NCBI GenBank assembly: GCA_964426385.1
Contig: CAYRQF010000004.1
Location: 12,573-76,572 of the forward strand
Direction of reading: 5' to 3'
Source of the DNA: an uncultured Candidatus Saccharibacteria bacterium
GTDB taxonomy: Bacteria; Patescibacteriota; Minisyncoccia; Phycocordibacterales; CSBR16-119
DNA: 64,000 nucleotides
Every line of letters starts with the position of its first letter. Within the stretch, counting starts at the first letter, position 1. The notes under the pieces are model-generated. The model had not been told where the DNA came from and did not search any database. It was given only the letters and a program-made list of their open reading frames with translations. Both the position numbers and the translations under genes were made by a program. Positions 25,466 through 64,000 of the stretch are shown in pieces.

Positions 25466-25543
25466 CGTGGTATTTACACACATATTTTACCTAGAACCAC
25501 TTGGCCAGGTGGTATAATCTGGTCATTGCACTAGGCAGTTTAT

Positions 25544-28867: not shown

Positions 28868-28975
28868 TCCCAAAACTGATTTTACTACCACAAAATGATA
28901 ATTTTAAATCACAACACAAAATTGGTCGGATCAGAATTTATTAGCATGATCAAAAATCAGTAACGGGACAAGTAT

Positions 28976-29626: not shown

Positions 29627-29627
29627 T

Positions 29628-31694: not shown

Positions 31695-31790
31695 CAGAGC
31701 TTACAGCGTATGGCTGTTAGCTTATAGAAATTCCACAAAATACCTAAAAGCAATAAGCTATACGCTAAAAGCTCGTGTTATAATATTTCC
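31695..31790 (+). promoter_or_regulatory. Conserved promoter/operator module (copy B)
   Basis: atggctgttagcttatagaa...cctaaaagcaataagctatacgctaaaagctcgtgttataata is homologous to 28354-28447. Confidence 0.55.
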
Positions 31791-32384: not shown

Positions 32385-32388
32385 AATC

Positions 32389-33375: not shown

Positions 33376-33377
33376 CA

Positions 33378-34958: not shown

Positions 34959-34962
34959 TCTC

Positions 34963-43138: not shown

Positions 43139-43147
43139 TGAAAAAAT

Positions 43148-43184
43148 AAACAAAACGCTCGGAATCATCCGAGTGTTTTGTTTT
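43148..43184 (+). terminator. Rho-independent terminator
   Basis: aaacaaaacgctcggaatcatccgagtgttttgtttt. Confidence 0.6.
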
Positions 43185-43307
43185 GACCAGAGGGTTTTCC
43201 ACATTGAGAATAGTAACTGTCAATTTATCCGTAAGGTAGGTGGTATCATATAAGGAGCAACAAATTATATTTTTATTATTTTATTAATTGTTTTTATTTT
43301 ATAAATT

Positions 43308-46300: not shown

Positions 46301-46337
46301 GCCTGGCCAGGGAGGACGAGTCTACATCTCCTGGTAA
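43308..46337 (+). CDS. large secreted glycine-rich hypothetical protein (1009 aa) with poly-Gly tracts
   Basis: Signal peptide MSFLRSKIFVAIFSMLAMVIQPYAVFA. Runs of 8-10 consecutive Gly and G-G-x-G repeats, with Thr/Ser/Asn-rich spacers. Ends ...GGRVYISW. Confidence 0.65.
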   Translation: MSFLRSKIFVAIFSMLAMVIQPYAVFAQDFSWTEPSGPPLDNNVAPPVNVGPVGQTKDGEFFIMKQGGNGFAVPFSSASFGTYLPGIFGGPAIDYPSTVNIYGNLLYRPDGTAGATPPAGQVLSTGVNGYAKWVDPATLVGSGSTLPTCTANQVLQVNQTGTWSCGTGATSATLPVGTNGQTLRYNSTMAQWEPTSVVTVTGTGPAVVGVGSGAGNSTGVINIMTSSTVPNAHIEVASPSIMLRPGSSPIQAGQVLTSTTTQGHIGWVDPITLLGSLLPNGTSGQTFVHNGTNWTATDKLTHSQASVAIPAPYEGDFNPDGFMSKITNDVFMLDTAKASLGRAGQGYVNIYGQNAGALSNNFTFTPMVGQTQNVNFFSDNVKFAGPFQNNQWDSKLGRLLFSKDDEGSIKWSRGLEYQEDFEGMYNIFGVVDDADDADDIPLLWSEGLTFLQGDTTIDGLTTINNDLVVSTEGDLFLEGVNYPSASDNVKHLCLRMSDKQVVRCEPQNVIGEVPQTETRTGIFTETFGPGSGPGVSFPRPNQAPGDVTVKICGAGGGGGGGGRGWEDGSENGHGGGGGGGGGKGDCITTDITGLSGTELTWNIGSGGTGGSPGNIDVVYQPQPSQTNADTSASSGQPGAGTQVSYEGNQIGSVLGGAGGYAGANASGSGPGVGGSGGSSNINIATAGWHKGSNGQISTDNATEMGQGGVGGKGENNVTGQGGNGGSGGQPFSGSQFGNAGQQGASGYGGGGGGGGSGKWYDYLYSLSNQQNQDNAIRNHGGWGGNGGSGYVQLTYYVYIEEPAAPTSEEFLASGSFDLSQIPTDDPNLDVTFEVWGAGGGGGGAGTATPPSGSYVRRGGGGGAGGYGTITVDRSALPNTGTLAITVGNGGTAGTITTSGGNGGQTVVAGAMSITVEGGEGGSKKVYGQTCAPVIAQGGDTISGAALTAGGDGGSCGEPAVNPPPTGYGGGGVQSVGGYGGGGVGASVNYLGAQTVAPQPGQGGRVYISW

Positions 46338-49054: not shown

Positions 49055-50071
49055 CTAGTGCTTCACTATGCGTTGAGGTGTCTCATTCCCAACCCTGCAT
49101 AGGTACATCCCCACTGGGAGATCTCGGAGAGACACGACTCCGTTTGAGGGTGTTACTCCGAGCCAAACGGTCTTGCCACTCATGTCTGAGATAACTAGAT
49201 GCTCGGGACGGCCTGAGTTACTGACGGTAATAACATCATCGAATGGGTTTGGAAACACCACTGTCTGATGTATTGCTTGATCAGCAATCTCGGTGCTGAT
49301 GTCTCCAGCGGTGAAGCAAGGAGATTGATCGGTTGCAACCACTCCGGACATGCTTGGTCCGAATTCTCCAGCGATGCTATCCTCGGTGTGTATCAAGCTG
49401 GCTTCAGCTCGAAGCTCTACGAGGGATCCACTGTAGTCAAAAACGAAAGTGTGGTGATCGGACAGATCGCTCGACTGAGGCTGACGCTCAGATGCGATGA
49501 CGGAATCGTCGGAGCATCTTACCAGTCGAACCTCTACTTCGGACTTCTTGTATCCGCAGTCGTAGAACATATTGGGGGCGAGGTTCCAGTCTTCGGCGTG
49601 TACATCAACAGTGATCTGGTCGCCTGAGATGACTGGCGACTGCTCAATGTTGAAGTATGACGGCGGACTGTATACTCGTCCACCCATGGGGTCGTAGCTA
49701 CTTTCATAGTAAGCCGTATTTTCGCCGGGGTTAAAGATGGCGAAAGCAACGTTTACGTTGTAGTGTGTGCCCCAAGGAAAAATGGGGAAGTACTCCAGTG
49801 TGATCGAGTCAACACCCGGTTCGTAGATCGTTCGAATGACTGAATGCAGGGTTTGGCCGTTCAGTGTGGCGGAAATGGTCTTGGGTCCGGCATCAGTCCA
49901 GCACGTCTCGAAAACGAACCACACTTTGTAGGGCTCAAGACTGAGACCTCCGATGGGATTCTCAGTCGAGGCGCACGGCGAGTAGAGGGGGCGGACTGGT
50001 GCGATGCACTGTCCGAAACTGGTGGGAATGAGGGCGCAAAGAAGCGCTAGGGTGACAAAGAGCTTTTTCAT
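49055..50071 (-). CDS. secreted protein with C-terminal T9SS-type sorting domain (Por_Secre_tail-like)
   Basis: Signal peptide MKKLFVTLALLCALIPTSFGQ. The C-terminal ~70 aa, VVFPNPFDDVITVSNSGRPEHLVISDMSGKTVWLGV...LPVGMYLCRVGNETPQRIVKH, match the Bacteroidota T9SS C-terminal-domain consensus. Confidence 0.65.
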   Translation of the reverse strand: MKKLFVTLALLCALIPTSFGQCIAPVRPLYSPCASTENPIGGLSLEPYKVWFVFETCWTDAGPKTISATLNGQTLHSVIRTIYEPGVDSITLEYFPIFPWGTHYNVNVAFAIFNPGENTAYYESSYDPMGGRVYSPPSYFNIEQSPVISGDQITVDVHAEDWNLAPNMFYDCGYKKSEVEVRLVRCSDDSVIASERQPQSSDLSDHHTFVFDYSGSLVELRAEASLIHTEDSIAGEFGPSMSGVVATDQSPCFTAGDISTEIADQAIHQTVVFPNPFDDVITVSNSGRPEHLVISDMSGKTVWLGVTPSNGVVSLRDLPVGMYLCRVGNETPQRIVKH

Positions 50072-50684: not shown

Positions 50685-52397
50685 ATGACGTTCATGCCTT
50701 TGAAGCCTATCCCTAAAAAAGTTGAAAAAGAGCTCGAAAAATACCCACCTCTGACTCAGAGACTTCTTTTTAATCGCGGGATTGTGACGAAAGAAGAGGC
50801 TGAGACATTCATGAATCCTTCGTACGAGGACCATGTCTACGATCCGTTCCTTATGTCTCGACTCGAGGAGGCTGTGGATCGGATATACGTAGCAGTGAAG
50901 AGTGACGAAAAGATTTCCATATTTGCAGATTATGACTGCGATGGCATACCGGGAGCCGTTGTCATGAATGACTTTTTCCATCTCATAAAATATGAGAATT
51001 TTGAAATATATATTCCTGACAGACACAAAGAGGGTTATGGCTTAAACCGTATGGCACTCCAAGATATAGCTGATAGGGGAGGTAGCCTCGTTATCACAGT
51101 AGACCTCGGTATTACAGCCGTTGACGATGTTGAGTTTGCCAAGAGTCTCGGGTTGTTTGTCATCGTGACCGACCATCACCTTCCTCAGGATGTTTTGCCG
51201 GATACTCTAGTTGTGAATCCGAAACAACCAGGAGATACATATCCAGATAACATGCTCTGCGGGGCAGGGGTGGCGTTCAAAGTAGTTCAGGGATTTGTAA
51301 AAAAATACGGCGAAGAGTTCGGGGTGAAAGAAAGTGCACTCAAGTGGATGCTCGACATGGTCGGACTCGCGACACTAGCCGATATGGTACCGCTCCGCGA
51401 TGAGAATAGGGCGCTCGCATACTACGGTCTCAAGGTCCTGAGACAGACTAGACGGCCTGGACTACTCCAGTTATTACGCCGAGTAAATATTGACCCTCGA
51501 ACGCTACAAGAAGAAGACCTGACATTTTCTATATGCCCGAAACTTAACGCCGCATCTAGGATGGATACACCGATGCGAGCATTCGAACTCCTAGCGGCGA
51601 ATGATGATGGAACCGCCGGGCTCAAAGCCATGCATCTAACGAAAATGAACGATGAGCGCAAGACTCTGGTTGCAACCATGATGCGAAGCGTCAAGAAAAC
51701 GTTCGCTCATCCAGAGCGTATAGATAGGTCTGTCATAGTCATCGGGGATCCAACTTGGCGGGCGGGGGTGCTCGGACTAGTTGCGGGAAAAATTGTCGAT
51801 GAGTTCAAGAAGCCAGCGTTCGTCTGGGGTCTCGAGGGTGGGACGGTCATCAAGGGCTCGTGTCGCTCTGACGGTACAGTTAACCTTGTCGACATGATGA
51901 AGTGCCTACCTGCAAATGGGTTACTCGAGTTCGGCGGACATGCTGGCGCTGGGGGATTCTCTGTTTCTTATGAAGAGATTCATTTCCTAGAGGAGCGTCT
52001 AGTCGAGGCCTATGACAAAACAAAAATCGCGAAAGTTGATAGTGCTGAGGGGGTAGAGATTGATACAGAACTAACACTCGACGAGGTAAACGAGAGAACC
52101 TGGAACGAGATTGAGAAGCTTGCGCCGTTCGGTGCCGCGAATCCGAAACCGGTATTCCTCCTCCGCGATATCGAAGTGAGAGATATAAAAATATTCGGCA
52201 AAGCCAAGGATCACCTCGAGCTATCATTTCTTGATTCGAACGAAAGGCGAGTGAAAGCTATCAGCTTCTTCAAGTCTCCAAGTGACTACGGTGACAAGGT
52301 TAAGTTGGGGGCGAAGATTAATCTCTATGCCAATATGGAAAAATCAGTTTTTGGGTATAAGAAGGAGATAAGGCTTCGGATAATCGAAATAAAGTAA
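50685..52397 (+). CDS. recJ: single-stranded-DNA-specific exonuclease RecJ
   Basis: DHH-family motifs ADYDCDGIP, ITVDLG and VIVTDHHLP, followed by a DHHA1-like region. Confidence 0.85.
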   Translation: MTFMPLKPIPKKVEKELEKYPPLTQRLLFNRGIVTKEEAETFMNPSYEDHVYDPFLMSRLEEAVDRIYVAVKSDEKISIFADYDCDGIPGAVVMNDFFHLIKYENFEIYIPDRHKEGYGLNRMALQDIADRGGSLVITVDLGITAVDDVEFAKSLGLFVIVTDHHLPQDVLPDTLVVNPKQPGDTYPDNMLCGAGVAFKVVQGFVKKYGEEFGVKESALKWMLDMVGLATLADMVPLRDENRALAYYGLKVLRQTRRPGLLQLLRRVNIDPRTLQEEDLTFSICPKLNAASRMDTPMRAFELLAANDDGTAGLKAMHLTKMNDERKTLVATMMRSVKKTFAHPERIDRSVIVIGDPTWRAGVLGLVAGKIVDEFKKPAFVWGLEGGTVIKGSCRSDGTVNLVDMMKCLPANGLLEFGGHAGAGGFSVSYEEIHFLEERLVEAYDKTKIAKVDSAEGVEIDTELTLDEVNERTWNEIEKLAPFGAANPKPVFLLRDIEVRDIKIFGKAKDHLELSFLDSNERRVKAISFFKSPSDYGDKVKLGAKINLYANMEKSVFGYKKEIRLRIIEIK

Positions 52398-52398
52398 A

Positions 52399-52430
52399 AG
52401 AAAACCCCTCAACTGAGGGGTTTTCTTTTG
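52399..52430. terminator. bidirectional terminator between recJ and rplT
   Basis: aaagaaaacccctcaactgaggggttttcttttgg. Confidence 0.75.
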
Positions 52431-52436
52431 GTTAGA

Positions 52437-52784
52437 CTACTTGTTTACTGAGTCAAATATTCTCTTGAATGCTTCTGGGTGATTCACTGCGATATCGGCT
52501 AGGACTTTGCGATCGAGGCCAACGTTGTGTTTCTTGAGGGCAGCGATGAATCGTGAGTATGTCATGCCGAGTGGTCTGACAGCAGCGTTTAGCTTGGCCT
52601 GCCAGAGAGCTCTGGCATCAGCCTTCTTGTCCTTTCTGTGGGCGAAAGCATGGTATCCAGCGTGCTTGATGGCAACCTTTGCCTCACGCTCTTTGGTTGA
52701 ACGACCGAAACGATAGCCTTTGACCTTGGCCAGGACATTCTTTCTCCTCTTTAATGAAATTGTTCCTCTTTTTACTCTTGGCAT
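52437..52784 (-). CDS. rplT: 50S ribosomal protein L20
   Basis: MPRVKRG...KRRKNVLAKVKGYRFGRS matches the bL20 N-terminus. Confidence 0.9.
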   Translation of the reverse strand: MPRVKRGTISLKRRKNVLAKVKGYRFGRSTKEREAKVAIKHAGYHAFAHRKDKKADARALWQAKLNAAVRPLGMTYSRFIAALKKHNVGLDRKVLADIAVNHPEAFKRIFDSVNK

Positions 52785-52787
52785 ATA

Positions 52788-53039
52788 TTATTTGTTATCG
52801 GCAGCAGCTCTCGCCGGTGCATCCTTGTTAACTCTCGGCTTTCGGACTTTGATGTTTAGGTGAGGGAAGTATCGTCCGCGGTCTTTGTTCGAGAGTGTGA
52901 AGTCGATGGCCGTCTTGCCCTGGAGCTGTTTTCGGCGCTTCTGTTTCGCATTGAAATGGTTAAATCCCGGCTTTCGAGCTTTAAGCTTGCCGTTCTTTGT
53001 TATTCGTATTCTTTTTGTAAGTGATTTCTTTGTTTTCAT
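52788..53039 (-). CDS. rpmI: 50S ribosomal protein L35
   Basis: MKTKKSLTKRIRITKNGKLKARKPGFNHFNAKQKRRKQL is basic and bL35-like. It sits in the canonical infC-rpmI-rplT order. Confidence 0.75.
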   Translation of the reverse strand: MKTKKSLTKRIRITKNGKLKARKPGFNHFNAKQKRRKQLQGKTAIDFTLSNKDRGRYFPHLNIKVRKPRVNKDAPARAAADNK

Positions 53040-53043
53040 AAAT

Positions 53044-53565
53044 TTAGTTCTTTTTGGTGTTGTCTCTCTCGAGAGTGACCATCATACCGCGAGGGCTCGG
53101 CTTCATCGGTTCGGCTATCTTGTAAGTTGCGGTGATGAGGTTCAGGACTCTGTCCAGACGCTCCTTCTTGAAATTCTGCTCGGTGTACTTCGAGCGTCCT
53201 ACGAGGTAGAGCTCCACTTTGACTCGATGTCCTTCTTCTAGCCATTCAGAGGCTTTTTTTGCCTTTAGCTCCAGGTCATTCTCGCCAGTTGCGATCTTGA
53301 TCTGGATGGATTTGGTCTCAGTCTTGTGGGCTTTCGACTTGGCTTCTTTCAGTTTCTTGTTTTGTTCGTACTGAAATTTACCATAATCCATTATTTTTGC
53401 AATAGGCGGGACGGCGGTCGCAGTAATCTCGATGAGATCGAGTCCACGTTCTTCGGCGAGCGCTATGGCATCTTTGGTCTTCATCACGCCGAGTTTCGCG
53501 TCCTCGTCGCCGATGAGTCTGACCTCCAGACTCCTTATTTCATTGTTTATTCGGTTTCGGATCAA
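53044..53565 (-). CDS. infC: translation initiation factor IF-3
   Basis: INNEIRSLEVRLIGDEDAKLGVM...GLDLIEITATAVPPIAKIMDYGKFQY matches IF3 N- and C-terminal domain consensus. Confidence 0.9.
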   Translation of the reverse strand: MIRNRINNEIRSLEVRLIGDEDAKLGVMKTKDAIALAEERGLDLIEITATAVPPIAKIMDYGKFQYEQNKKLKEAKSKAHKTETKSIQIKIATGENDLELKAKKASEWLEEGHRVKVELYLVGRSKYTEQNFKKERLDRVLNLITATYKIAEPMKPSPRGMMVTLERDNTKKN

Positions 53566-53690
53566 TTCTTTATTCTAGTTCTTACTTATGATTAAGTCCT
53601 CGAATTCTAGCTTATATATATAGTATCGTCAATCATTTCAGGCTTTTTTGGCCTTGTGTTAAAAAAGCATGTCTAGGCTAGGGCAAAACC

Positions 53691-53719
53691 TTGACTTCAT
53701 ATTATCTTTTATATAGTAT
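53691..53719 (+). promoter_or_regulatory. sigma70-like promoter upstream of tuf (TTGACT-17-TAGTAT)
   Basis: ttgacttcatattatcttttatatagtat, roughly 170 nt upstream of the tuf start. Confidence 0.55.
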
Positions 53720-53890
53720 GTCCTTACGCTAATTGTGTGACGAGGGTGGTTAATATCCCGCTAAACTAAGGCGGGCTAAATTTATCCGGAGTTTCACGTA
53801 TAGCCTATTATTAAAATTAGTATGTTGGTGGGTCTAATCTAAGAGCGTGTTCTCGTGTTTTAGGTTACGTTCATCAACCAATGTAATTAT

Positions 53891-55090
<1,200 letters not shown>

Positions 55091-55113
55091 CGATTCTTAA
55101 TAGTTCATTAAAT

Positions 55114-55464
55114 ATGGCGACTAAAAAAGCACAATCAAAGACTAAAAAGGCAAGCGATAAAGTAGTGCTTAGGATTCGCGTCCGGGCTTACGAGAACAAG
55201 ATTCTCGATAACTCTGTGAAGCAGATCATTGATACGGCTATGCGCCACGATGCCGGAGTATTGGGCCCAGTGCCTCTTCCGACAGAGATCAAGAAGTACA
55301 CCGTGAATAGCTCACCGTTCGTTTATAAAGATGCGCGAGAACAATTCGAGATCAGGACGCATAAACGTCTTATCGACATCTTGAACCCATCACCGAAAAC
55401 GATCGAGGCTCTCACCAACCTAAACCTTCCTTCAGGCGTCGAGATCGATGTGAAAATGGTCTAA
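55114..55464 (+). CDS. rpsJ: 30S ribosomal protein S10
   Basis: [37 protein letters not shown] matches uS10. Confidence 0.9.
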
Positions 55465-55539
55465 TTAATAGACTAATCAACCGGTTACAATGCCCACGAG
55501 CCGCGTTTGACGCGGTCCGGGGTAACTTAACTAAATATC

Positions 55540-56163
55540 ATGAAATTCATTCTTGGAAAAAAAATAAATATGACTCAGTTCTTCGATGAGGACGGCAAGG
55601 TTTTCCCTGCGACCCTTGTCGATGCTGGACCAATCAAGGTTGTCCAGAGGAAGACTGTCGAGCAGGACGGCTATGAGGCTATCCAGTTCGGCTATGGCGA
55701 AGTAAAGGAGGCGAGAGTCAACAAGGCGGCCAAAGGCCACTTCAAGGATCTCGGTAACTACAGACACCTCAAAGAGTACCGTCTCAAAGGCCCCGAGTCT
55801 TCTGACCTTAAGGTCGGAGACACTCTAGACGCTGGAGTCTTCACCGCTGGCGACACTGTCGTTGTGACAGGCGTTTCCAAGGGTAAGGGCTTCCAGGGTG
55901 TGGTCAAACGTCACGGTTTCAAAGGTGGACGACGCTCTCATGGACAGAAGCACTCTGAGCGCGAACCAGGAACTATCTCCGGAGGCGGAGGACGTGCCGG
56001 AGGTCGCGTGGCCAAAGGTCTACGCATGGGGGGACGCATGGGTGGCGATATCGTCACTGTGAAGAATCTCAAGGTACTCGCCATCGATACTGAAAACAGC
56101 AAGATTCTAGTTAAGGGAGCAATCCCTGGTCGACGTGGAACACTCGTAACCATAATAGGCTAA
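55540..56163 (+). CDS. rplC: 50S ribosomal protein L3
   Basis: uL3 consensus KTVEQDGYEAIQFGYGE...GFQGVVKRHGFKGG. Confidence 0.9.
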   Translation: MKFILGKKINMTQFFDEDGKVFPATLVDAGPIKVVQRKTVEQDGYEAIQFGYGEVKEARVNKAAKGHFKDLGNYRHLKEYRLKGPESSDLKVGDTLDAGVFTAGDTVVVTGVSKGKGFQGVVKRHGFKGGRRSHGQKHSEREPGTISGGGGRAGGRVAKGLRMGGRMGGDIVTVKNLKVLAIDTENSKILVKGAIPGRRGTLVTIIG

Positions 56164-56172
56164 TACAAATAT

Positions 56173-56838
56173 ATGGAAGCAAAAATCTACAACAAAAGCG
56201 GAAAGGAAGCGGGAACGATAGAGATCCCGGCTGAAATATTTGGCCTTACATGGAACGCCGACTTGGTTCACCAGGTCTACACGTCACAGAACTCTAATGC
56301 TCGTGCTAACACTGCGAAGACCAAGGATCGTTCCGAAGTCTCTGGTACAGGCAAGAAGCCTTGGAAGCAGAAGGGAACAGGACGTGCCCGACACGGCTCG
56401 AAGCGTTCTCCGATCTGGGTCAAAGGAGGTATCACATTCGGTCCTTCTCCTGAACGAAACTACAAGAAGAAAATCAACAAGAAGATGAACGCCAAAGCTC
56501 TCTTTACTGTGCTCTCTGAGAAGCTCCGAAACGGACAGGTTCTGTTCGTCGACAGTATCGCGCCTGGAGCGATGAAGACAAAAGAGGCATCGAAAATCAT
56601 GCAGGCTCTCGGTGATGTTACAGGATTCGAGAGGCTCAAAGGCTCAAAGAAGGTCGTTGCCCATGTCGCCATGGACAAGACTGACGAAGTAGTCACAAAG
56701 AGCTTCAACAACATCCCTAACGTTGCGATTGAAGAGATCCGAAACCTTAGCGTTACCGACCTCTTGAACCACCGATACCTATTAATAGTCAACCCAAAGG
56801 CGTCAATCGAGATCCTCGGGGCTAAATTAGCGAAATAA
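56173..56838 (+). CDS. rplD: 50S ribosomal protein L4
   Basis: uL4 motif KPWKQKGTGRARHGS. Confidence 0.9.
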   Translation: MEAKIYNKSGKEAGTIEIPAEIFGLTWNADLVHQVYTSQNSNARANTAKTKDRSEVSGTGKKPWKQKGTGRARHGSKRSPIWVKGGITFGPSPERNYKKKINKKMNAKALFTVLSEKLRNGQVLFVDSIAPGAMKTKEASKIMQALGDVTGFERLKGSKKVVAHVAMDKTDEVVTKSFNNIPNVAIEEIRNLSVTDLLNHRYLLIVNPKASIEILGAKLAK

Positions 56839-56839
56839 T

Positions 56840-57244
56840 ATGGGAATATTTTCTAAAAAAGAAGGCGATAAACCTGTAGTAAAGAAAGCTGTAACCAAGA
56901 AGCCTGCCGTAAAGGCTGAGCCGAAGGCTGTGGTCGCTAAGGCGCCGAAGGTGAGTGGCAAAGTCTCTGTCAATGCGGCGAAGATTCTAAAGAATCCTCG
57001 CATCACTGAGAAAGCTGCGCACATCTCTGATAACCGAGTGTACACATTCGACGTTTTTCCTGGAGCTTCAAAGATTGATATCGCTAAAGCCGTCGCATCC
57101 GTATATGGTGTCGTGCCAGTACGAGTGAACGTTTCAGCTATCGCCAAGAAGCAGGTCCTACGAAGAGGCAGACTAGGGGTAAAGGGCGGAGGAAGGAAGG
57201 CTTACGTATACCTCAAAAAAGGGGACAAGATAGAATTTATTTAA
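56840..57244 (+). CDS. rplW: 50S ribosomal protein L23 with Lys/Ala-rich N-terminal extension
   Basis: uL23 core ILKNPRITEKAAHISDNRVYTFDV...AKAVASVYGVVPVRVNV. Confidence 0.85.
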   Translation: MGIFSKKEGDKPVVKKAVTKKPAVKAEPKAVVAKAPKVSGKVSVNAAKILKNPRITEKAAHISDNRVYTFDVFPGASKIDIAKAVASVYGVVPVRVNVSAIAKKQVLRRGRLGVKGGGRKAYVYLKKGDKIEFI

Positions 57245-57299
57245 TTAATTTAAGCAGTCTGAGAACCACAACAGTTACTCATTATAGATTGCAGATACC

Positions 57300-58154
57300 A
57301 TGAAAAAGTATAAACCAACATCAGCAGGTAGACGAGGCATGACGGTAGTAACATACCGAGGCGTGCTTACGAAATCTGCTCGAAACAAGAAGTTGACGAC
57401 TGGAGGCAAGCGCCACGTCGGTCGCAACAATCAGGGTCGCATCACAACGCCTCACAAGGGTGGAGGACACAAGCGTGCGTATCGAGAAGTTGACTTCAAA
57501 TACAACAAGATCGATATCCCGGCTACATTTACGACTGTCGAATACGATCCGAACCGCAATGCGTTCATCTCACTCGCAGTCTACGCCGATGGTGAGAAGC
57601 GATATGTCATCTTCCCGAAGGGTGCCAAGGTTGGAGACAAGTTTGTCGTTAGTAAGTCTGCTGAGCCGAAAGTCGGCAACAGGCTTCCTCTCGTGAACAT
57701 CCCAGTCGGTACATTTATCTACAACGTTGAACTGAAAACTAACGGTGGAGCGAAACTTGGCCGAGGGGCTGGAGCATTCCTCCAGGTCGTCGCTCATGAT
57801 GAAGGCAAAACTTTCATCAAGATGCCATCGACCGAAGTCCGTAAGGTCCCATCGACATGCTGGGCATCAGTCGGTGAAGTTTCGAACTCCGAATGGAAAC
57901 TCACGAACTTCGGTAAAGCCGGACGTTCACGCTGGAAGGGAATTCGTCCGACAGTGCGTGGTTCTGCCATGAGTCCAGTGGATCACCCACACGGCGGAGG
58001 AGAGGGTCGTCAGGGAATCGGACTTCGCCGAGGACCAAAGACTCGTCACGGAAAACTCGCCTACGGTGTCAAAACACGAAAGTCCAAGAAATACTCAAAC
58101 AACTTCGTTGTTACTCGCCGAAAGACAAAGCGAAATCAACAGACAGTTATGTAA
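57300..58154 (+). CDS. rplB: 50S ribosomal protein L2
   Basis: uL2 motifs GRNNQGRITTPHKGGGHKR, ...GGAKLGRGAG..., and SPVDHPHGGGEGR. Confidence 0.95.
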   Translation: MKKYKPTSAGRRGMTVVTYRGVLTKSARNKKLTTGGKRHVGRNNQGRITTPHKGGGHKRAYREVDFKYNKIDIPATFTTVEYDPNRNAFISLAVYADGEKRYVIFPKGAKVGDKFVVSKSAEPKVGNRLPLVNIPVGTFIYNVELKTNGGAKLGRGAGAFLQVVAHDEGKTFIKMPSTEVRKVPSTCWASVGEVSNSEWKLTNFGKAGRSRWKGIRPTVRGSAMSPVDHPHGGGEGRQGIGLRRGPKTRHGKLAYGVKTRKSKKYSNNFVVTRRKTKRNQQTVM

Positions 58155-58157
58155 TAA

Positions 58158-58193
58158 AAGCAAAGCCCCGAGAAATCGGGGCTTTGCTTTTGT
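58158..58193 (+). terminator. Rho-independent terminator directly after rplB (interrupts the S10 operon)
   Basis: aaagcaaagccccgagaaatcggggctttgcttttgtg. Confidence 0.7.
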
Positions 58194-58249
58194 GTTGACA
58201 AATAAGGGTTTTTGATGTAATATCCCGCCGAACCAACATAGATAGAACC

Positions 58250-59326
58250 ATGACAAACAGCAAATGGGCCTTACGGCTTGGGAAGCTGGTCGTCATGATC
58301 ATGCTTCTCTCTAATGTCGGATTTTTCAGAGGGGTTGTGGGTTGGGTAAACAGCGACAACAATAGCCCAGCCATTGTTGCCTATGATGAGCTCCGTAAAA
58401 AGGGCGGCGTCAGGGCGACAATCGCAGCTGAGCATCTGACCAACGAATATCTGCGTAACAAGCTCGACTCGGTTGTGAGTCTGGTCCGGAATGGGCATGT
58501 CTATACCATCCGCGATTACTTCATCGACTATCGAGATGTGCAGGACTACGCCGCCCTTAATTCCCCTTGGAACAACTGCCCGCTCGGCCTCTGTGAGATA
58601 CAGAATCAGGTGAGGGTAAGTGGTAGCGAGCCAAACAGGGAGGAAGTGGATCGGGCGCGTGAGGAGATCCTCGGAATGAAGGAGCCAAAATCCACCCCGA
58701 TCAACTGGTCGCGGGTCACAGACTGGCTGCTTCGGCAGTACCTTATGGGACTTTTGCCGGCACTGCTTATGTGCCTCATTCTTGCCCGTCAGGGACGGAT
58801 CAGCTTCAGCTTCCGAAAGTCTCCGGTATCAGCGCTCGCTTATCTGGCCTTGTGGCCGATCAATCTCGGTGCGTGCATCATCGCTGCGTTCCAAGACATC
58901 GACCGTGAGGCGCGGTTGCGCACCGAGAAGGATTCGCTTTTCTCCAAGCTATCAGGTCTGGAGGAAGAATTCCTGAACGGACTGCGGGACCGCTCTGGTC
59001 GCGAAGAGTTGCTGAGCGCACGCCGTGCACATCACAGCTATATCTTCGCAATCATCGCGGTACTCGTCATGAGAGTCGTTCCAGTTGTAGCCCAGAATGT
59101 TTCGGAAACGGAACACAAGACTACGATTGAGATGGCGTATCATGACCCTCCAGATAGTTGGAGTAGCGAGGTGGGGGATTCTGAAGACCCGATGTGTATC
59201 TTTGCGTTCGAGCGTTTCATTGCTGAAGCCAAAAGGCGTTTTGTCTGGTGGCCGAGTAGTGCGTTCGATATATTGGTTGGTTTCAACAGGGACGTTCATC
59301 ACGTTCCGTTGAGTGACACAGTCTGA
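58250..59326 (+). CDS. hypothetical polytopic membrane protein (island gene)
   Basis: Several hydrophobic helices. GC appears locally higher than in the flanking ribosomal genes. Confidence 0.5.
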   Translation: MTNSKWALRLGKLVVMIMLLSNVGFFRGVVGWVNSDNNSPAIVAYDELRKKGGVRATIAAEHLTNEYLRNKLDSVVSLVRNGHVYTIRDYFIDYRDVQDYAALNSPWNNCPLGLCEIQNQVRVSGSEPNREEVDRAREEILGMKEPKSTPINWSRVTDWLLRQYLMGLLPALLMCLILARQGRISFSFRKSPVSALAYLALWPINLGACIIAAFQDIDREARLRTEKDSLFSKLSGLEEEFLNGLRDRSGREELLSARRAHHSYIFAIIAVLVMRVVPVVAQNVSETEHKTTIEMAYHDPPDSWSSEVGDSEDPMCIFAFERFIAEAKRRFVWWPSSAFDILVGFNRDVHHVPLSDTV

Positions 59327-59358
59327 TAAAGCTGTGTTCAACTCAACCAACCAAAAAC

Positions 59359-60213
59359 GTGAAGAAAAACAAAAGGAATTTCTTGGCACTCTCCGCACTT
59401 CTCGTGCTGTCAGTAGCCAAGGCCCAGATAGAGAACGTGAATCTCGGTAACGATTCGAGCTTTGTGCTCGATCGAGTGTATGCCGGAATGCTCGGAGCCA
59501 ACAACTTCTCGATCGATAGCGTTTATCGAACGGGTTTCGTCGGCTTTCGAGTTGGCGCATCTGCGAGGCTTCGTGTGTCCAAAGCAGTGTCAGTCATATC
59601 CTTCATCACCGAAGACATGACCAACGTCGGCAATAGTATCGGAGGCTCCGGCTTCCTGGTGCGAGTGCAGATGGACACGAGCTTATACATGGCCATCGGT
59701 TTCGGTCCGCAGGTAAGTACGTTCCTACAACGCCCTCATCCTGCGACTGCTGGCGGTCAGTTCGAGACGTTTACCCATCGGGCGATACCGGGACCTGGTC
59801 CTGGGATTCGCTTGGTCAAGACGATCGGCAAGACCAGTCTGCTCGGAAGCGTCGCCATGATCGACGACGATCCGGAATACCAAGTGGGTGTTCTATTCGC
59901 TGGACTGCGAGCGTCTGTTTGGCACCGAGCTGACAGTCTGTGGGGAACTGCAGTTACATACGAGCATGATCGCTTCAAGACAATCCTCGTCGTACGCGAT
60001 GATCTGCTGGCGTGCGTGACCACGGTCAATCTGCCGAACAAGTACATTGTCTACGCTGACGCCGGTATGACAACAGACCACTACACTGTTGTTCGTGCAG
60101 AGGCAGGCATACTACGAACTTTCGAAGCAAAAGCGTATATCAAGGGTCTATTCGGCCTCGGGTATGCGCATGAGCTTCGAAGCGCGCGAGGTTACATCTT
60201 CGTTACGCTATGA
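59359..60213 (+). CDS. secreted beta-rich hypothetical protein, possibly porin/OMP-like (island gene)
   Basis: Signal peptide MKKNKRNFLALSALLVLSVAKAQ. Alternating hydrophobic pattern with Gly/Tyr-rich strands. Confidence 0.45.
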   Translation: MKKNKRNFLALSALLVLSVAKAQIENVNLGNDSSFVLDRVYAGMLGANNFSIDSVYRTGFVGFRVGASARLRVSKAVSVISFITEDMTNVGNSIGGSGFLVRVQMDTSLYMAIGFGPQVSTFLQRPHPATAGGQFETFTHRAIPGPGPGIRLVKTIGKTSLLGSVAMIDDDPEYQVGVLFAGLRASVWHRADSLWGTAVTYEHDRFKTILVVRDDLLACVTTVNLPNKYIVYADAGMTTDHYTVVRAEAGILRTFEAKAYIKGLFGLGYAHELRSARGYIFVTL

Positions 60214-60305
60214 ACATTCGACGCAAGCTGCCGCCGTCCCTTTGGGATTGCGGCAGCTTTTGCATTCAGGTGGTATAATTTAGGTATTAGAAATATCATA
60301 TTTAT

Positions 60306-60809
60306 ATGAAGAATAATAATGTCGTCATAGGGCTTCTGGTTGTTGTTATTGTGATTTTGGCGCTTATCGCTTTCAAGAAACCAGCGAATGCTCCGGTTGA
60401 TACTCCGGACGAAAATACCGGTGAGACAGAACTCGATGGAACAAAGCTTTATCGAGGTGAAGGATTTTCATTCCGACATGATAAGCTCGCAAGTGTTCGA
60501 GTCGAAGGTGCAGGAACTTATGCGCCTCTATATACAATCTCTAGATCTGATGATGGAGGAGCGGCAGACCATCTCAGCTTCTTTCCAGCAGGAATGCCGA
60601 GTTTGAGTGAGTACAATCCATGCGGGGAGATGGAGGTTAAGAGTATGACTATCGGAGATAAACTATTTTCTTATTGTGACAGCAAAGCTGAACCAATGCG
60701 TACTTATATTTACAAAGATGGAGAGAAGGCCTTGATGATTAATGTAAACATGACAGGGGATAAGCCAGCTACTGGCTACATTGATCTCGCTTCGATTGAT
60801 CTGAAATAA
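60306..60809 (+). CDS. membrane-anchored hypothetical protein
   Basis: N-terminal TM VVIGLLVVVIVILALIAF. Confidence 0.5.
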   Translation: MKNNNVVIGLLVVVIVILALIAFKKPANAPVDTPDENTGETELDGTKLYRGEGFSFRHDKLASVRVEGAGTYAPLYTISRSDDGGAADHLSFFPAGMPSLSEYNPCGEMEVKSMTIGDKLFSYCDSKAEPMRTYIYKDGEKALMINVNMTGDKPATGYIDLASIDLK

Positions 60810-60818
60810 TAACTCTAG

Positions 60819-60851
60819 CAAAACCCCTCAAACGAGGGGTTTTGCTTTTTC
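60819..60851 (+). terminator. Rho-independent terminator
   Basis: aaaacccctcaaacgaggggttttgcttttt. Confidence 0.75.
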
Positions 60852-60891
60852 AGGCGGGGAAGTATAGACTCGTGACAAACACGAACAACAC

Positions 60892-61863
60892 ATGAGCACC
60901 ATCACTCTTCCAAACACACTGCTGCGTTCAGAGCTGAAACTACCGGGCGTCATAGACGTCTATCGTGGCAAAGTCCGAGACGTTTACCACCTAAAAGGCG
61001 ATATGATCGTCATGGTGGCGAGCGATCGACTGAGCGCCTTTGATGTTGTGATGCCGCGAGGTATTCCGCACAAAGGCCAGACATTGACCGAGATCAGCTG
61101 GGAAATGCTGCGGACAAGCTCGGTTCCTCAATGGGCGATGCATTCGCCTGACCCCTGTGTGATCGTTGGCGTTCGCACTACGCCGATCAAGGTTGAGATG
61201 GTCGTTCGCGACCGACTCACGGGGAGTTGGTGGCGGAAATACCAACAGGGTATACGTGAGATCGGTGGCTACAAGCTTCGAGACGGGATGAAGGAATTCG
61301 ATCGTTTCGAGGATGATGGCCCCATCATCACACCGAGCACAAAGGCCGATGAAGGGCATGATGAGGATATCAGCCCTGATGAGATCATTGCTCAAGGTTT
61401 GTGCACTGGGGATCAGTGGGACAAGATGTGTCTCTACTCCCTTGAGCTCTTCCGTGAAGGCACGCGCATTGCGCTCCAGCGCAAACTTGTCTTGGTGGAT
61501 ACCAAGTACGAGTTCGGCTTGGATCCGACTGGCAACGTGATCTTGATCGATGAGATCAATACCCCTGACAGCTCGCGATACTTCCATCACGAAGGTTTCG
61601 ACGTGGCGATCGCTGATGGCAAAACTCCCAAGCATCTTTCCAAGGAGTTCGTACGTCAGTGGCTTATCAGCCAGGGCTTCCAGGGCAAGGAGGGGCAGAA
61701 AATGCCCGAACTCACCGATGGATGGGTTATGCTTGTGAGCGAGCGATACGCCGAGCTCTTCGGCTGCATCATGGGCAAACCCTTTGAGCCTGCATCAACT
61801 GAGGATATCAATGCTCGCATCCAGAGCAACCTCAACCGGTACTTCAATTCCATGCGGGGCTAG
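60892..61863 (+). CDS. purC: phosphoribosylaminoimidazole-succinocarboxamide (SAICAR) synthase
   Basis: VYRGKVRDVY, ASDRLSAFD and LVLVDTKYEFGLDPTGNVILIDEINTPDSSRY match PurC conserved blocks. Confidence 0.8.
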   Translation: MSTITLPNTLLRSELKLPGVIDVYRGKVRDVYHLKGDMIVMVASDRLSAFDVVMPRGIPHKGQTLTEISWEMLRTSSVPQWAMHSPDPCVIVGVRTTPIKVEMVVRDRLTGSWWRKYQQGIREIGGYKLRDGMKEFDRFEDDGPIITPSTKADEGHDEDISPDEIIAQGLCTGDQWDKMCLYSLELFREGTRIALQRKLVLVDTKYEFGLDPTGNVILIDEINTPDSSRYFHHEGFDVAIADGKTPKHLSKEFVRQWLISQGFQGKEGQKMPELTDGWVMLVSERYAELFGCIMGKPFEPASTEDINARIQSNLNRYFNSMRG

Positions 61864-61889
61864 CCAAGCTCAAACAGAACATTCGTTAG

Positions 61890-61925
61890 TCGCCCCTGGC
61901 CATCCGGCCGGGGGCGCTTTCGTTT
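61890..61925 (+). terminator. Rho-independent terminator after purC
   Basis: cgcccctggccatccggccgggggcgctttcgttt. Confidence 0.55.
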
Positions 61926-61934
61926 AAGTCCCGT

Positions 61935-61963
61935 TTGACAGGGGAAACCCCATCTGCTAGTAT
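61935..61963 (+). promoter_or_regulatory. near-consensus sigma70 promoter (TTGACA-17-TAGTAT) driving rpsS-rplV-rpsC-rplP
   Basis: ttgacaggggaaaccccatctgctagtat, about 120 nt upstream of rpsS. This implies the 3' half of the S10 cluster is transcribed separately. Confidence 0.6.
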
Positions 61964-62082
61964 GAACGACATTCGCGCCTAAGGCCCGAATTTTTTGAAA
62001 ATGAAATAGCAGATGGCAGTGAAGCTCTGGACTGTTCCAGAGACGAACGACCTAGCCATGCACTAATGATTTTCGTATACAC

Positions 62083-62445
62083 ATGACAAGATCACTTAAA
62101 AAAGGTCCATATATAGACGCAAAGCTTCTCAAGAAGATTGCGGACAAAAAACCCCAAGAAACAGGGGTTATTAATACTTGGGCTAGAAGCTCTCAGATAG
62201 CACCAGAAATGATCGGCTTTTCTTTTGGCGTTCATAACGGCAAGGACCACATCAAGGTATTCGTAACAGAAGACATGGTAGGGCACCGATTGGGCGAATT
62301 CTCTCCGACCCGCAAGTTCCACCGCCACGGAGGTAAGCTCATGAAAGAGCTGGAACAGAAGAAGAAAGAGGGCGAGGTCGCTGCAGCCCAGGCTGCCAAG
62401 TCAGCAGCTGATGCCGGAGCCGCTAAAGCACCTGCTAAGAAATAA
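62083..62445 (+). CDS. rpsS: 30S ribosomal protein S19 with Ala/Lys-rich C-terminal extension
   Basis: uS19 core [16 protein letters not shown]...[24 protein letters not shown]. Confidence 0.9.
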
Positions 62446-62453
62446 AAACTGAT

Positions 62454-62918
62454 ATGAAAGCTATTCTTAAAAACTACCGCCAGTCACCACGAAAAGTTCG
62501 CCTCGTTGCGAAGGCTGTTCGTGGCAAGTCTGCGTCACAGGCTGCTATGATTCTCGACTTCATGCCGAAGCGCGCAGCTGACCCTATCAAGAAACTCATC
62601 GACTCTGCTGTCGCTAACGCTCGCGTCAATAATGGTATTGATATAGCTGACCTTGTGGTTAAAAACATCGAGATCAATCAGGGTGTCACACTCAAGCGTT
62701 ACCGCCCACGAGCTCGTGGTTCAGCGTACCGCATCAACAAGCGAACAAGCCATATCGTGGTAACCTTGGAATCAAAGGCAGGTTCAGCGGCAGGAGAGGC
62801 TGCGGCTACACCTGTAGCGAAGACTTCTACTGCGAAACCTGCCAAGGCCGTAGCGAAGAAGGCTGCAGCAAAGAAAGCCCCAGCAAAGAAGGCTGTGGTT
62901 AAGAAATCAACGAAATAA
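62454..62918 (+). CDS. rplV: 50S ribosomal protein L22 with Ala/Lys-rich C-terminal extension
   Basis: uL22 core ...SPRKVRLVAKAVRGKSASQAAMILDFMPKRAA...INQGVTLKRYRPRARGSAYRINKRTSHI. Confidence 0.9.
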   Translation: MKAILKNYRQSPRKVRLVAKAVRGKSASQAAMILDFMPKRAADPIKKLIDSAVANARVNNGIDIADLVVKNIEINQGVTLKRYRPRARGSAYRINKRTSHIVVTLESKAGSAAGEAAATPVAKTSTAKPAKAVAKKAAAKKAPAKKAVVKKSTK

Positions 62919-62919
62919 T

Positions 62920-63612
62920 ATGTCAAAGAAAGTTAACCCATATTCACATAGACTAGTAGTTCTCCGAGATTGGAAATCTCGCTGGTTTTCAACTGGCAAG
63001 AAATTCGCCGAGACTCTAAAGTCTGACATCCTCATCCGAGAATTCTTGACCAAGAAACTCCGAGCTGCATACCTATCTTGCGTCGAGATCGAACGATCTC
63101 GCAAAGCGACTCGCATCATCATCAAAACTGCTCGCCCAGGTCTCATCATCGGACGTTCCGGAGAGGGTGCCAAGAAAATCCGCGAGGATCTCGTTGCTAT
63201 GCTCAAGAAGAAGAACATCATCGTTCCTGAGGACATGAAGATAGACATCCAAGAAGTTACGAGTCCTGATGCTGATGCGCAGATCGTTGCTTACACTATT
63301 GTCGAAGGACTCGAGAAGCGTCTTCCTTTCCGTCGTGTCATCAAACAGACTCTCGAGAAAGTCATGGCCTCTAGGGAGGTCAAAGGTGCCCGTATCGTCG
63401 TCTCAGGACGACTCAACGGTGCTGACATGGCTCGCCGAGAAGAGGTCAAGCAGGGATCTATCCCACTACAGACTATCCGTGCCGATGTCGACTTTGCTCG
63501 TGAGCGCGCAGTTCTCTCATACGGAACTCTCGGTATCCGCGTTTGGATATACCGTGGCGAAGTGTTTGAGAAGGATCGATTGGCTGCTATGAATGCGAAT
63601 AATAGGAATTAA
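62920..63612 (+). CDS. rpsC: 30S ribosomal protein S3
   Basis: uS3 KH domain plus the C-terminal domain RPGLIIGRSGEGAKKIRE...GRLNGADMARRE. Confidence 0.9.
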   Translation: MSKKVNPYSHRLVVLRDWKSRWFSTGKKFAETLKSDILIREFLTKKLRAAYLSCVEIERSRKATRIIIKTARPGLIIGRSGEGAKKIREDLVAMLKKKNIIVPEDMKIDIQEVTSPDADAQIVAYTIVEGLEKRLPFRRVIKQTLEKVMASREVKGARIVVSGRLNGADMARREEVKQGSIPLQTIRADVDFARERAVLSYGTLGIRVWIYRGEVFEKDRLAAMNANNRN

Positions 63613-63622
63613 TTAGATCTAT

Positions 63623-64000
63623 ATGTTATTCCCAAAGAAAGTAAAATATAGAAAGTGGCAGACAGCCAGGAAGAACCCGATCAAGCGGGAGCGTCCTGAT
63701 ACTCGTGGAACAGAGATTAACTTCGGTTCTTATGGTCTCAAGGCCGAGAGTATGGCTCGTGTTACTTCAGCTCAGATCGAGTCAGCTCGAAAGGCTATGG
63801 TTAGACACCTGACCAAGGAAGGCAAGTCTTGGATTCGTATTTTCCCTGATCGACCAGTTACAGCTAAAGCTGCCGAAGTGGGTATGGGTAAAGGAAAAGG
63901 AGACCTTAAAGGTTACTGTTTCGAAGTTCACCCAGGACGCGTCATTTTCGAGGTGGACGGTGCGACGGTCGCTATCTGCAAGGAGGCTCTACGAAAGGCT
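63623..64000 (+). CDS. rplP: 50S ribosomal protein L16 (3' end truncated by window)
   Basis: MLFPKKVKYRKWQ...SWIRIFPDRPVTAKAAEVGMGKGKG is uL16. The ORF runs off the window edge. Confidence 0.85.
   Translation, partial: MLFPKKVKYRKWQTARKNPIKRERPDTRGTEINFGSYGLKAESMARVTSAQIESARKAMVRHLTKEGKSWIRIFPDRPVTAKAAEVGMGKGKGDLKGYCFEVHPGRVIFEVDGATVAICKEALRKA

Follow-up and report, generated by a model that had tools for sequence, protein, structure and literature searches.

A modular gene islet carrying purC at a split S10 operon boundary in a candidate phyla radiation bacterium

We analysed a 64,000-nt stretch of DNA from an uncultured Candidatus Saccharibacteria bacterium (contig CAYRQF010000004.1, assembly GCA_964426385.1, positions 12,573 to 76,572; hereafter the window), in which four genes, the open reading frames (ORFs) ORF1, ORF2 and ORF3 followed by purC, lie between the ribosomal-protein genes rplB and rpsS of the S10 cluster. 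This islet is probably a long-standing, modular 'safe harbour' at a lineage-specific operon boundary, and not a recently integrated island. Comparison of loci from the candidate phyla radiation (CPR) shows the S10 cluster of this Parcubacteria/Paceibacteria-like group to be arranged as two predicted transcription units, split at rplB–rpsS. As judged from gene order, the cargo of the spacer differs by lineage, and within the window's clade accessory modules come, go and change position. Two known kinds of arrangement meet here: an operon that is split, and a hypervariable islet flanked by conserved genes.

Division of the S10 cluster at rplB–rpsS

ORF calls reproduce the gene order described in a first-pass annotation of the sequence, with tuf-rpsJ-rplC-rplD-rplW-rplB upstream, the four islet genes in the middle and rpsS-rplV-rpsC-rplP downstream. 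Together with family searches they also bear out the description of the islet products as a membrane protein, a secreted protein, a membrane-anchored protein and PurC. The rplB–rpsS gap measures 3,928 nt and holds four terminators and an rpsS promoter, and the window would not qualify as a canonical single-unit S10 operon, in which rplB and rpsS are adjacent and co-transcribed. The folding energies of all four terminators fall between 5 and 10 standard deviations below those of shuffled controls (z-scores in Table 1), confirming the strong terminator after rplB and the one before rpsS that had been annotated. The near-consensus TTGACA-17-TAGTAT promoter ahead of rpsS matches the consensus at 10 of 12 positions, as claimed. 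With four terminators and two promoters predicted, the view that the islet is built of separate transcription units is upheld.

An L2-similarity scan returned 14 CPR and 67 non-CPR loci at which the junction could be compared. In the 67 non-CPR loci the median length of the rplB–rpsS gap is 19 nt and the longest gap 89 nt, confirming the earlier statement that the islet interrupts a near-universal adjacency; it is an insertion relative to nearly all bacteria. A gap of 0.5-5 kb is found in 10 of the 14 CPR loci. Upstream of rpsS, a sigma-70-type promoter of the form TTGAC(A/T)-16/17-TA(g/c/a)tAT is present at 12 of the 14 CPR loci versus none of the 67 others, and a terminator follows rplB at 9 of 14 versus 1 of 67. 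Two CPR loci (L005, L009) have an intact junction of 54-60 nt yet carry the rpsS promoter, and therefore this promoter appears to be a property of the lineage and not a by-product of the window's insertion. Among species-representative genomes the closest L2 sequences are 56-69% identical to that of the window and belong to Patescibacteria metagenome-assembled genomes labelled Kaiser-, Nomura-, Taylor- and Paceibacteria.

The cargo is unrelated from one lineage to another and includes an apparent toxin-antitoxin pair (L012), peptidoglycan-binding proteins (L010, L011), a PhoH/PIN protein (L011) and small membrane proteins. The pair in L012 (Kaiserbacteria MFKT01000001, 10898-11493) consists, by eye, of AbrB/MazE-like and MazF/PemK-like genes within the rplB–rpsS gap. 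At a second S10 junction, rpsJ–rplC, unrelated genes take up 1.1-4.1 kb in L005, L007, L010 and L011; in the window this junction is intact (75 nt). The insert at rpsJ–rplC in L010 (Nomurabacteria JACKGI010000003, 678-4753) contains a reverse transcriptase (3346-4518) with a YVDDMLF motif, and a protein encoded at 1709-2515 that ends in SVRCVED, the C-terminal segment of which recurs as a near-copy at 3120-3338. From this layout, the insert looks like a diversity-generating retroelement inside an S10 operon.

The gene order on both sides of the islet is that of the canonical S10 operon of E. coli and B. subtilis (rpsJ-rplCDWB-rpsS-rplV-rpsC-rplP-rpmC-rpsQ). In contrast to the canonical operon, the cluster of the window and of related Parcubacteria is divided at rplB–rpsS, with a terminator on one side and, on the other, an independent rpsS promoter that has a leader, and that of some CPR relatives is further cut at rpsJ–rplC, with non-ribosomal genes occupying the cuts. 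No description of a split S10 operon in CPR was found in the literature searched.

Islet variants in the clade of the window

Contigs from other samples and studies encode L2 proteins 84-96% identical to that of the window. At least six further distinct contigs (L087, L088, L089, L091, L092, L096) carry the ORF1-ORF2 core at the same junction, with the gene orders given in Table 1. Because presence and position vary across these loci, ORF1-ORF2 is considered the constant core, and ORF3, purC and the remaining genes accessory modules. The same arrangement in relatives, together with a composition like that of the flanks, had been named beforehand as what would speak for an ancestral islet; the arrangement is shared for the ORF1-ORF2 core but not for ORF3, purC and the other genes, which vary.

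Searches of 5.8 billion proteins yielded 12 homologues of ORF1 and 11 of ORF2, and all of those with readable context are located at the rplB–rpsS junction. The 146 nt at 58183-58328, which hold the ORF1 promoter, are 87% identical in L091 despite a 560-aa gene inserted upstream, and promoter sequences similar to that of ORF1 are seen by eye in L087 and L088. ORF1 has no match in Pfam, NCBIfam, PADLOC or PHROGs. Its AlphaFold2 model is poor (predicted local distance difference test, pLDDT, 59), with meaningless Foldseek matches. The conserved core spans residues ~160-245 and comprises a transmembrane pair and a D-x-EAR-x-R motif; ORF1 appears to be a clade-specific helical membrane protein and the conserved partner of ORF2. 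The same four databases returned nothing for ORF2, ORF3 and the extra cargo genes of L084, L088 and L091.

ORF3 is a movable accessory module: homologues 72-80% identical are placed between rplB and ORF1 in L089 and L092. In both contigs it stands directly 3' of rplB. In the window, the terminators of rplB and ORF3 (58159-58191 and 60817-60849) share 76% sequence identity, which suggests that ORF3 moved along with, or by recombination at, a terminator copy.

The islet contains no integrase, nearby tRNA or att-like flanking repeat, the look-alike terminators being the sole flanking repeats. The window's only recombinase (2911-3831) and only tRNAs (154-389) lie at a distance of over 54 kb. The islet genes matched no defence or phage family in PADLOC and PHROGs. 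Nor is the ORF1-ORF2 core absent from close relatives at the same site, as a mobile island would be. The earlier proposal of a recent or mobile acquired island was hence abandoned: mobility genes and att sites are lacking, the core is shared by at least six contigs, and ORF1 and ORF2 have diverged like rplB.

Divergence of ORF1, ORF2 and purC

We determined the identity of four-fold degenerate sites at conserved residues, pairwise among the clade loci. Values for L2 range from 0.44 to 0.66 across pairs (window versus L091, 0.53), and those for ORF2 (0.43-0.66; 0.56) and ORF1 (0.38-0.65; 0.55) are equivalent. Because this divergence equals that of rplB, ORF1 and ORF2 were inherited vertically within the clade. 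They have co-diverged with the ribosomal flanks and are fast only as proteins, their dN/dS ratio (nonsynonymous over synonymous substitution rate) being 0.17-0.29 (ORF1, 0.22-0.29) versus 0.02-0.08 for the flanking genes. Exchange of the whole cassette, as first read from the high GC content at third codon positions (GC3) and the low identity of ORF1 and ORF2, was ruled out for these two genes by the rplB-equal four-fold identity.

For purC the four-fold-site identity is 0.24-0.34 (window versus L091, 0.31), and is saturated in every pair. At the protein level, window and L091 are 96% identical in L2, 98% in S3, 94% in L4, 78% in ORF2, 54% in ORF1 and 47-48% in purC; compared with the organism of L089 and L092, RecJ is 86%, tuf 95% and purC 43% identical. 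The purC alleles at this locus are 40-62% identical, even where the L2 proteins of the organisms are 96% identical. Ranked by purC, the relatives of the window are L084 and L085 (61%), L091 (48%) and L089 (43%); ranked by L2, they are L091 (96%), L089 (93%) and L084 (88%). Identity between window and L091 amounts to 84-87% in the 45 nt 5' of purC, in the conserved purC terminator and in the rpsS promoter, and the purC coding sequence in their midst is unalignable at the nucleotide level. On this evidence the purC alleles predate by far the separation of the organisms in which they occur, and the pattern points to repeated replacement of purC at one site. We infer that the coding cassette was replaced by recombination with relatives sharing the same flanks. 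Following the four-fold-site analysis, a case for exchange would stand for purC only.

The alternative that every part of the islet, purC included, is ancestral and has been passed on by vertical descent alone, with one ancient purC evolving extremely fast in each lineage, is unlikely. It draws on the shared NCBIfam type of the alleles, on a neighbour-joining tree that places the window allele with P0001, P0002 and P0003, and on the star of long branches formed by the CPR alleles, which are approximately equidistant from a slow-evolving Flavobacteriales set; CPR proteins in general often evolve fast. Such a history is difficult to reconcile with silent sites that are saturated in purC but not in ORF2 or in rpsS (third-position identity of window and L091, 0.68), a gene-specific rise in silent rate being hard to justify. 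Furthermore, the purC ranking contradicts the L2 ranking, and the islets of L087 and L088 lack purC.

The purC product

The purC product matches Pfam PF01259 (SAICAR_synt) with E 3.1e-61, residues 23-266 aligning to profile positions 2-227 of 233. The purC alleles of the locus are of the NCBIfam PRK12607 type (NF009251), for which the window allele scores marginally above the cutoff (374.6 versus 371 bits) and the L089 allele below it (320.6 bits). Relative to yeast Ade1 (1a48), the motifs for ATP, carboxyaminoimidazole ribonucleotide and aspartate binding are intact (GKVRD, DRxSAFD, EMVVR..TGS, TPSTKA..HDE, DTKYEFG, DE..TPDSSR). The L089 and L091 alleles keep the same motifs, which are shared with yeast Ade1 and Mycobacterium PurC. 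Because all alleles retain the nucleotide- and substrate-binding motifs, purC likely encodes an active SAICAR synthetase.

The protein thus shares domain, length and motifs with PRK12607 PurC enzymes, which have their best representation in Flavobacteriales and solved relatives in yeast (Ade1, 1a48) and Mycobacterium (3r9r, 6yvq). It differs from a typical member in its score barely over the cutoff, in standing alone in a ribosomal operon and in its hyperdivergent alleles. A scan of the window revealed no other pur genes within the 64 kb. No riboswitch precedes purC (Rfam scan of 52000-64000, E<=1, with terminator look-alikes as the only matches). PHROGs returned a weak match to a phage auxiliary-metabolic purC family. 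Purine synthesis has been reconstructed for groundwater CPR only by pooling genomes (PMC12114108), and nothing relevant on purC in CPR was found in the literature searched.

ORF2 and its predicted porin-like fold

An AlphaFold2 model of ORF2, built from an 11-sequence alignment, has 16 strands (pLDDT 76; predicted template modelling score 0.69). Foldseek comparison to the PDB gave OmpU (6ehb) as best match, with E 7e-9 and a TM-score of 0.62. Other porins matched include those of Rhodopseudomonas blastica, OmpF/C and OmpM1 (probability 1.00, TM-score 0.56-0.62, <=10% identity). The strands are amphipathic, with mean Kyte-Doolittle values of +1.9 on the hydrophobic and -0.4 on the polar face. 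ORF2 is therefore modelled as a closed antiparallel 16-strand amphipathic barrel, porin-like in architecture. An N-terminal Sec signal peptide, MKKNKRNFLALSALLVLSVAKA/Q (the slash here and below marks the cleavage site), is conserved across the family by inspection.

ORF2 shares with the general diffusion porins (OmpU, OmpF/OmpC, the Rhodopseudomonas blastica porin, OmpM1) a signal peptide, ~260 mature residues and the predicted 16-strand barrel. In contrast to them, it shows at most 10% identity, no porin Pfam match above threshold and a C-terminus (FVTL) that is not aromatic, and it is encoded by CPR, bacteria regarded as lacking an outer membrane. With no match in Pfam or NCBIfam, ORF2 falls outside the curated porin and outer-membrane-protein families. 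Among 60 family members, Pfam searches gave sub-threshold matches only, to OMP_b-brl in 4, DUF2490 in 3 and OprB in 1.

A profile search of 1.84 billion cluster representatives identified 253 representatives of the ORF2 family (~270-300 aa), 96 of them at E<=1e-30; a metagenome scan with the close ORF2 alignment returned only two loci. Taxonomy was read indirectly, from a neighbouring CCA enzyme or from UGA recoding. In a Saccharimonadales contig so assigned by its CCA enzyme (L095, JGI 3300037810, 10001-14144), a distant family gene immediately precedes guaB (IMP dehydrogenase) and purA (adenylosuccinate synthetase); this makes two independent cases in which the family neighbours purine genes. 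Contig L093 (GC content 0.37) combines a family member with a uvrA-like gene (1319-4600) whose only in-frame stops are 11 TGA codons, which means that the organism reads UGA as sense. Such a code is seen in Gracilibacteria, Absconditabacteria or Mollicutes, and contig L090 shows fragmented gene calls alongside this case. Another family member adjoins groES-groEL. ORF2 thus belongs to an unannotated, CPR-wide family and is not an import from Bacteroidota.

CPR are regarded as single-membrane bacteria without an outer membrane or the beta-barrel assembly machinery (BAM) for insertion. Family scans of the 64 kb window detected nothing resembling outer-membrane or BAM machinery genes, and the literature searched contained nothing relevant on porins or beta-barrels in Patescibacteria or Saccharibacteria. 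The monoderm or diderm nature of CPR is discussed in PMC8871954. We regard as speculative and improbable the idea that barrels widespread in CPR reveal an unrecognised outer permeability layer, or a pore delivered into the outer membrane of the host, with rplB–rpsS acting as a recombination-driven site for host-interface cassettes. If true, the placement of ORF2-family genes beside purC or guaB-purA would reflect uptake of purine precursors.

A narrower version, in which ORF1, ORF2 and purC form one module whose surface- or host-envelope channel takes up purine precursors for PurC and downstream enzymes, is also doubtful, and we give it little credence. The predicted porin fold, the order ORF2-purC in four clade variants (window, L085, L089, L091) and the guaB-purA neighbourhood in Saccharimonadales are compatible with it. 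The genes are nonetheless separated by terminators, L087 and L088 have ORF1-ORF2 but no purC, L084 has purC but no ORF1-ORF2, and the family members of L093 and L097 have unrelated neighbours, leaving two independent associations only.

Composition, signal peptides and the origin of the islet

Relative to 40 native genes of >=150 aa, the islet deviates in composition as expected of an integrative island. The GC content of ORF1, ORF2 and purC is 0.534-0.539 versus a native mean of 0.474 (standard deviation 0.029; z ~ +2.1), and GC3 is 0.62, 0.59 and 0.65, respectively, versus 0.50 (standard deviation 0.064), with purC ranking top among 59 window ORFs. ORF3 deviates downward (GC3 0.37, z -2.0). 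The impression that the first two islet genes and purC are GC-richer than the flanks is therefore correct, if modest in size (z ~ +2). The comparison of codon usage is less uniform: while GC and GC3 deviate, the synonymous-codon fit of purC to native genes is native-like (z -0.69), with ORF1 at -2.0 and ORF2 at -2.75. Across the window, L087, L088, L089 and L091, GC3 of ORF1, ORF2 and purC remains at 0.51-0.65, and that of the surrounding ribosomal genes falls to 0.35-0.43 in L088 and L091.

By eye, 8 of about 9 predicted signal peptides in the window end in A/Q or G/Q, and the same ending is found in secreted proteins of L010 (8287-9735) and L011 (8484-9446). Gln follows the cleavage site without exception in 60 ORF2-family members. 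A 'Q-rule', with Gln as first mature residue, has been described as specific to Bacteroidetes (PMC5837995). Because nearly all window signal peptides share this ending, it appears native to this CPR group, and the invariant Gln was dropped as a mark of Bacteroidota. The suggestion in the first-pass annotation that a Bacteroidota-style signal peptide betrays the origin of ORF2 was not sustained, given that this ending is usual in the window and that Saccharimonadales and a UGA-recoded lineage have members of the family too. The Q-rule-like signal peptides could mean that this CPR group forms N-terminal pyroglutamate.

A further secreted protein of the window (338 aa, 49055-50071, minus strand) has the signal peptide ending SFG/Q and a C-terminal Por_Secre_tail domain (E 3.3e-7, 30.9 bits versus a cutoff of 27). 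Its gene has an elevated GC content (0.524) and a poor codon fit (z -2.3). Por_Secre_tail serves as sorting signal for type IX secretion, a system considered typical of Bacteroidota and unexpected in CPR.

A recent horizontal gain of the four-gene island from Bacteroidota, perhaps from a host, would accommodate the elevated GC content of ORF1, ORF2 and purC, the A/Q signal peptide of ORF2 and the protein with a type IX sorting domain, as well as the fact that all named close purC homologues are from Flavobacteriales/Bacteroidetes. We nevertheless judge it very improbable, and for ORF1-3 largely refuted. The purC homologues in question are 56-60% identical to the window protein and ~78% identical among themselves, a similarity which would reflect family affinity and is too distant to name a donor. 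No homologue of ORF1 or ORF2 is named as Bacteroidota, and both genes occur in CPR contexts only and co-diverge with rplB; the A/Q or G/Q ending is the usual one in the window; integrase and att site were not found; and purC codon usage fits native genes. A check of the taxonomic affinity of the islet proteins, as had been advised, placed the nearest named relatives of purC in Flavobacteriales but gave no donor, and ORF1 and ORF2 in CPR contexts alone. Of the claim that purC was acquired, a foreign origin or a history of replacement stands, but a Bacteroidota donor cannot be named at 56-60% identity and the codon usage is native.

Compositional shifts at the borders, and edge terminator hairpins that could in principle confuse assemblers, might suggest a foreign fragment joined into a ribosomal contig, but such a chimera is excluded for practical purposes and of negligible probability, because Logan assemblies of three separate runs match the window across the junctions at 100% identity (SRR12762275 both, SRR12762274 the upstream and SRR12762323 the downstream one), and the same architecture recurs in seven or more further contigs whose samples are unrelated. 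The junctions are genuine, and the misassembly concern raised earlier was not borne out.

A structured leader upstream of rpsS

Downstream of its promoter, rpsS is preceded by a leader of ~120 nt that is conserved in five distinct clade sequences (Table 1). An attenuator-like hairpin with U-run recurs in L087, L088, L091 and L096 and, in looser form, in L004, L006, L012 and L014 (by eye). In the core that follows, the flanking strands are invariant, and 7 of 17 pairs are maintained by changes on both sides in the five sequences, a small sample in which covariation would support a conserved structure. No Rfam family matched the leader at gathering score (52000-64000, E<=1).

The leader has in common with ribosomal-protein leaders (the L4-binding S10 leader and the r-leaders of Rfam) a structured 5' untranslated region, compensatory changes and an attenuator-like hairpin with U-run. 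Unlike these, it matches no Rfam entry, precedes rpsS, which is normally leaderless, and is represented by five sequences only. We infer a candidate autoregulatory leader for the distal half of the split operon.

Other features of the window

A cluster at 28448-36588 encodes PrgI, a VirB4/TraG-like ATPase, a type IV secretion pilin fused to NlpC/P60 and a peptidoglycan-binding protein; type IV secretion clusters like this one, of Gram-positive type, are seen in CPR. Large secreted proteins without a family match are encoded around it (13518-19040, 23177-27709, 40784-46337). Coordinates of the features discussed are collected in Table 1.

Table 1. Features of the rplB–rpsS region of the window, with the corresponding features and islet arrangements of related contigs (z, standard deviations below shuffled controls in folding energy).
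Feature	Position	Strand	Description
tuf	53891-55090		ORF call; upstream unit
rpsJ, rplC, rplD, rplW	between tuf and rplB		canonical order
rplB (L2)	57300-58154	+	ORF; Pfam L2 domains on identical Logan contigs; ends tuf-rpsJ-rplCDWB unit; left flank
Terminator 3' of rplB	58156-58191	+	16-bp perfect stem, then U-run; -30.9 kcal/mol, z -9.8
Promoter of ORF1+ORF2 unit	58195-58223	+	predicted; TTGACA-17-TAATAT; 10/12 consensus positions
ORF1	58250-59326	+	358 aa; several hydrophobic helices; helical membrane protein
ORF2	59359-60213	+	284 aa; signal peptide ending VAKA/QIEN; secreted
Terminator 3' of ORF2	60225-60259	+	-29.2 kcal/mol, z -5.0
Weak promoter-like site	60288-60317		near ORF3 start
ORF3	60306-60809	+	167 aa; N-terminal anchor
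Terminator 3' of ORF3	60817-60849	+	-22.8 kcal/mol, z -6.2; repeat family D3
purC	60892-61863	+	SAICAR synthetase, PRK12607 type
Terminator 3' of purC	61891-61916	+	-29.6 kcal/mol, z -5.5
Promoter of rpsS unit	61935-61963	+	predicted; TTGACA-17-TAGTAT; upstream TG (extended -10); 10/12 consensus positions
rpsS leader	61966-62082		L087 5698-5816; L088 6803-6921; L091 6921-7039; L096 1070-1190
Attenuator-like leader hairpin + U6	61971-61996	+	directly 3' of predicted rpsS transcription start
Conserved structured core, rpsS leader	62011-62060	+	AGAUGGCRGUGA - hairpin - ACGACCUAGCCAUG
rpsS (S19)	62083-62445	+	first gene of downstream unit, then rplV, rpsC, rplP; right flank
A/Q or G/Q signal peptides	ORF starts 23177, 25544, 32389, 33378, 40784, 43308, 49055(-), 59359		predicted
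Islet, L087			rplB-ORF1-ORF2-rpsS
Islet, L088			rplB-ORF1-ORF2-rpsS, plus 196-aa gene on minus strand
Islet, L089			rplB-ORF3-ORF1-ORF2-purC
Islet, L092			order as L089 up to ORF1, where contig ends
Islet, L091			rplB-[560 aa]-ORF1-ORF2-purC-rpsS
Islet, L085			ORF1-ORF2-purC
Islet, L096			ORF2-rpsS
Islet, L084			rplB-[140 aa]-purC

Discussion

We propose that the rplB–rpsS spacer forms a transcriptionally insulated boundary between a terminator and an independent rpsS promoter. Insertions at this position would do no polar damage to ribosomal-protein synthesis, would hence survive, and genes could accumulate. The fast-evolving ORF1-ORF2 pair, presumably a cell-envelope or host-interface module with its own conserved promoter, would have been housed long at this boundary in the window's clade. 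The highly conserved ribosomal flanks and the short conserved sequences around purC would permit cassette swapping by homologous recombination among relatives, with purC a functional cassette that is repeatedly replaced and may supplement a partial purine pathway.

The islet resembles integration hotspots and hypervariable loci such as those for O-antigen and capsule, which are exchanged via conserved flanks. Like them, it has conserved flanks, a content that is modular and differs among close relatives, alleles that diverge deeply at a single position, an atypical composition and no dedicated mobility genes. It is unlike them in that the flanks are ribosomal-protein genes within a normally single operon, the islet is small (2-5 kb), what is swapped encodes a housekeeping-type enzyme and not a surface-polysaccharide set, and exchange is deduced from the pattern.

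Several points weigh against the safe-harbour interpretation. Promoters and terminators are predictions from sequence, and the census covers only 14 CPR loci picked by L2 similarity, in two of which (L062, L011) no promoter was detected in the rplB–rpsS gap. Swapping of purC is read from the pattern of divergence, without observed breakpoints or donor alleles, and very fast evolution of a single acquired purC is formally possible, though saturated silent sites beside unsaturated neighbours argue against it. Simple vertical inheritance with amelioration fails to account for the persistently high GC3; the non-amelioration in ORF1 and ORF2 may stem from selection or from a GC bias associated with recombination. 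Finally, the ORF2 fold is predicted at medium confidence from an alignment of 11 sequences, and it is hard to see where a porin would fit in an organism regarded as single-membraned.

The safe-harbour interpretation has consequences for how these genomes are read. The rplB-rpsS pair is among the most conserved bacterial adjacencies, and this CPR group has made it into a gene-accumulating, apparently exchanging operon boundary, which bears on the use of ribosomal-protein synteny for binning, phylogenomic marker extraction and chimera checks in CPR genomes. By-products of note are the porin-like CPR family, the candidate rpsS leader and the Q-rule-like signal peptides in CPR. The rpsS leader is a candidate regulatory RNA that may have arisen through the operon split, and the ORF2 family, with its predicted porin fold, provides a handle on the CPR cell envelope or host interface. 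The hyperdivergent purC alleles at one site would represent an unusual repeated replacement of a metabolic gene, and bear on the patching of nucleotide metabolism in reduced symbionts.

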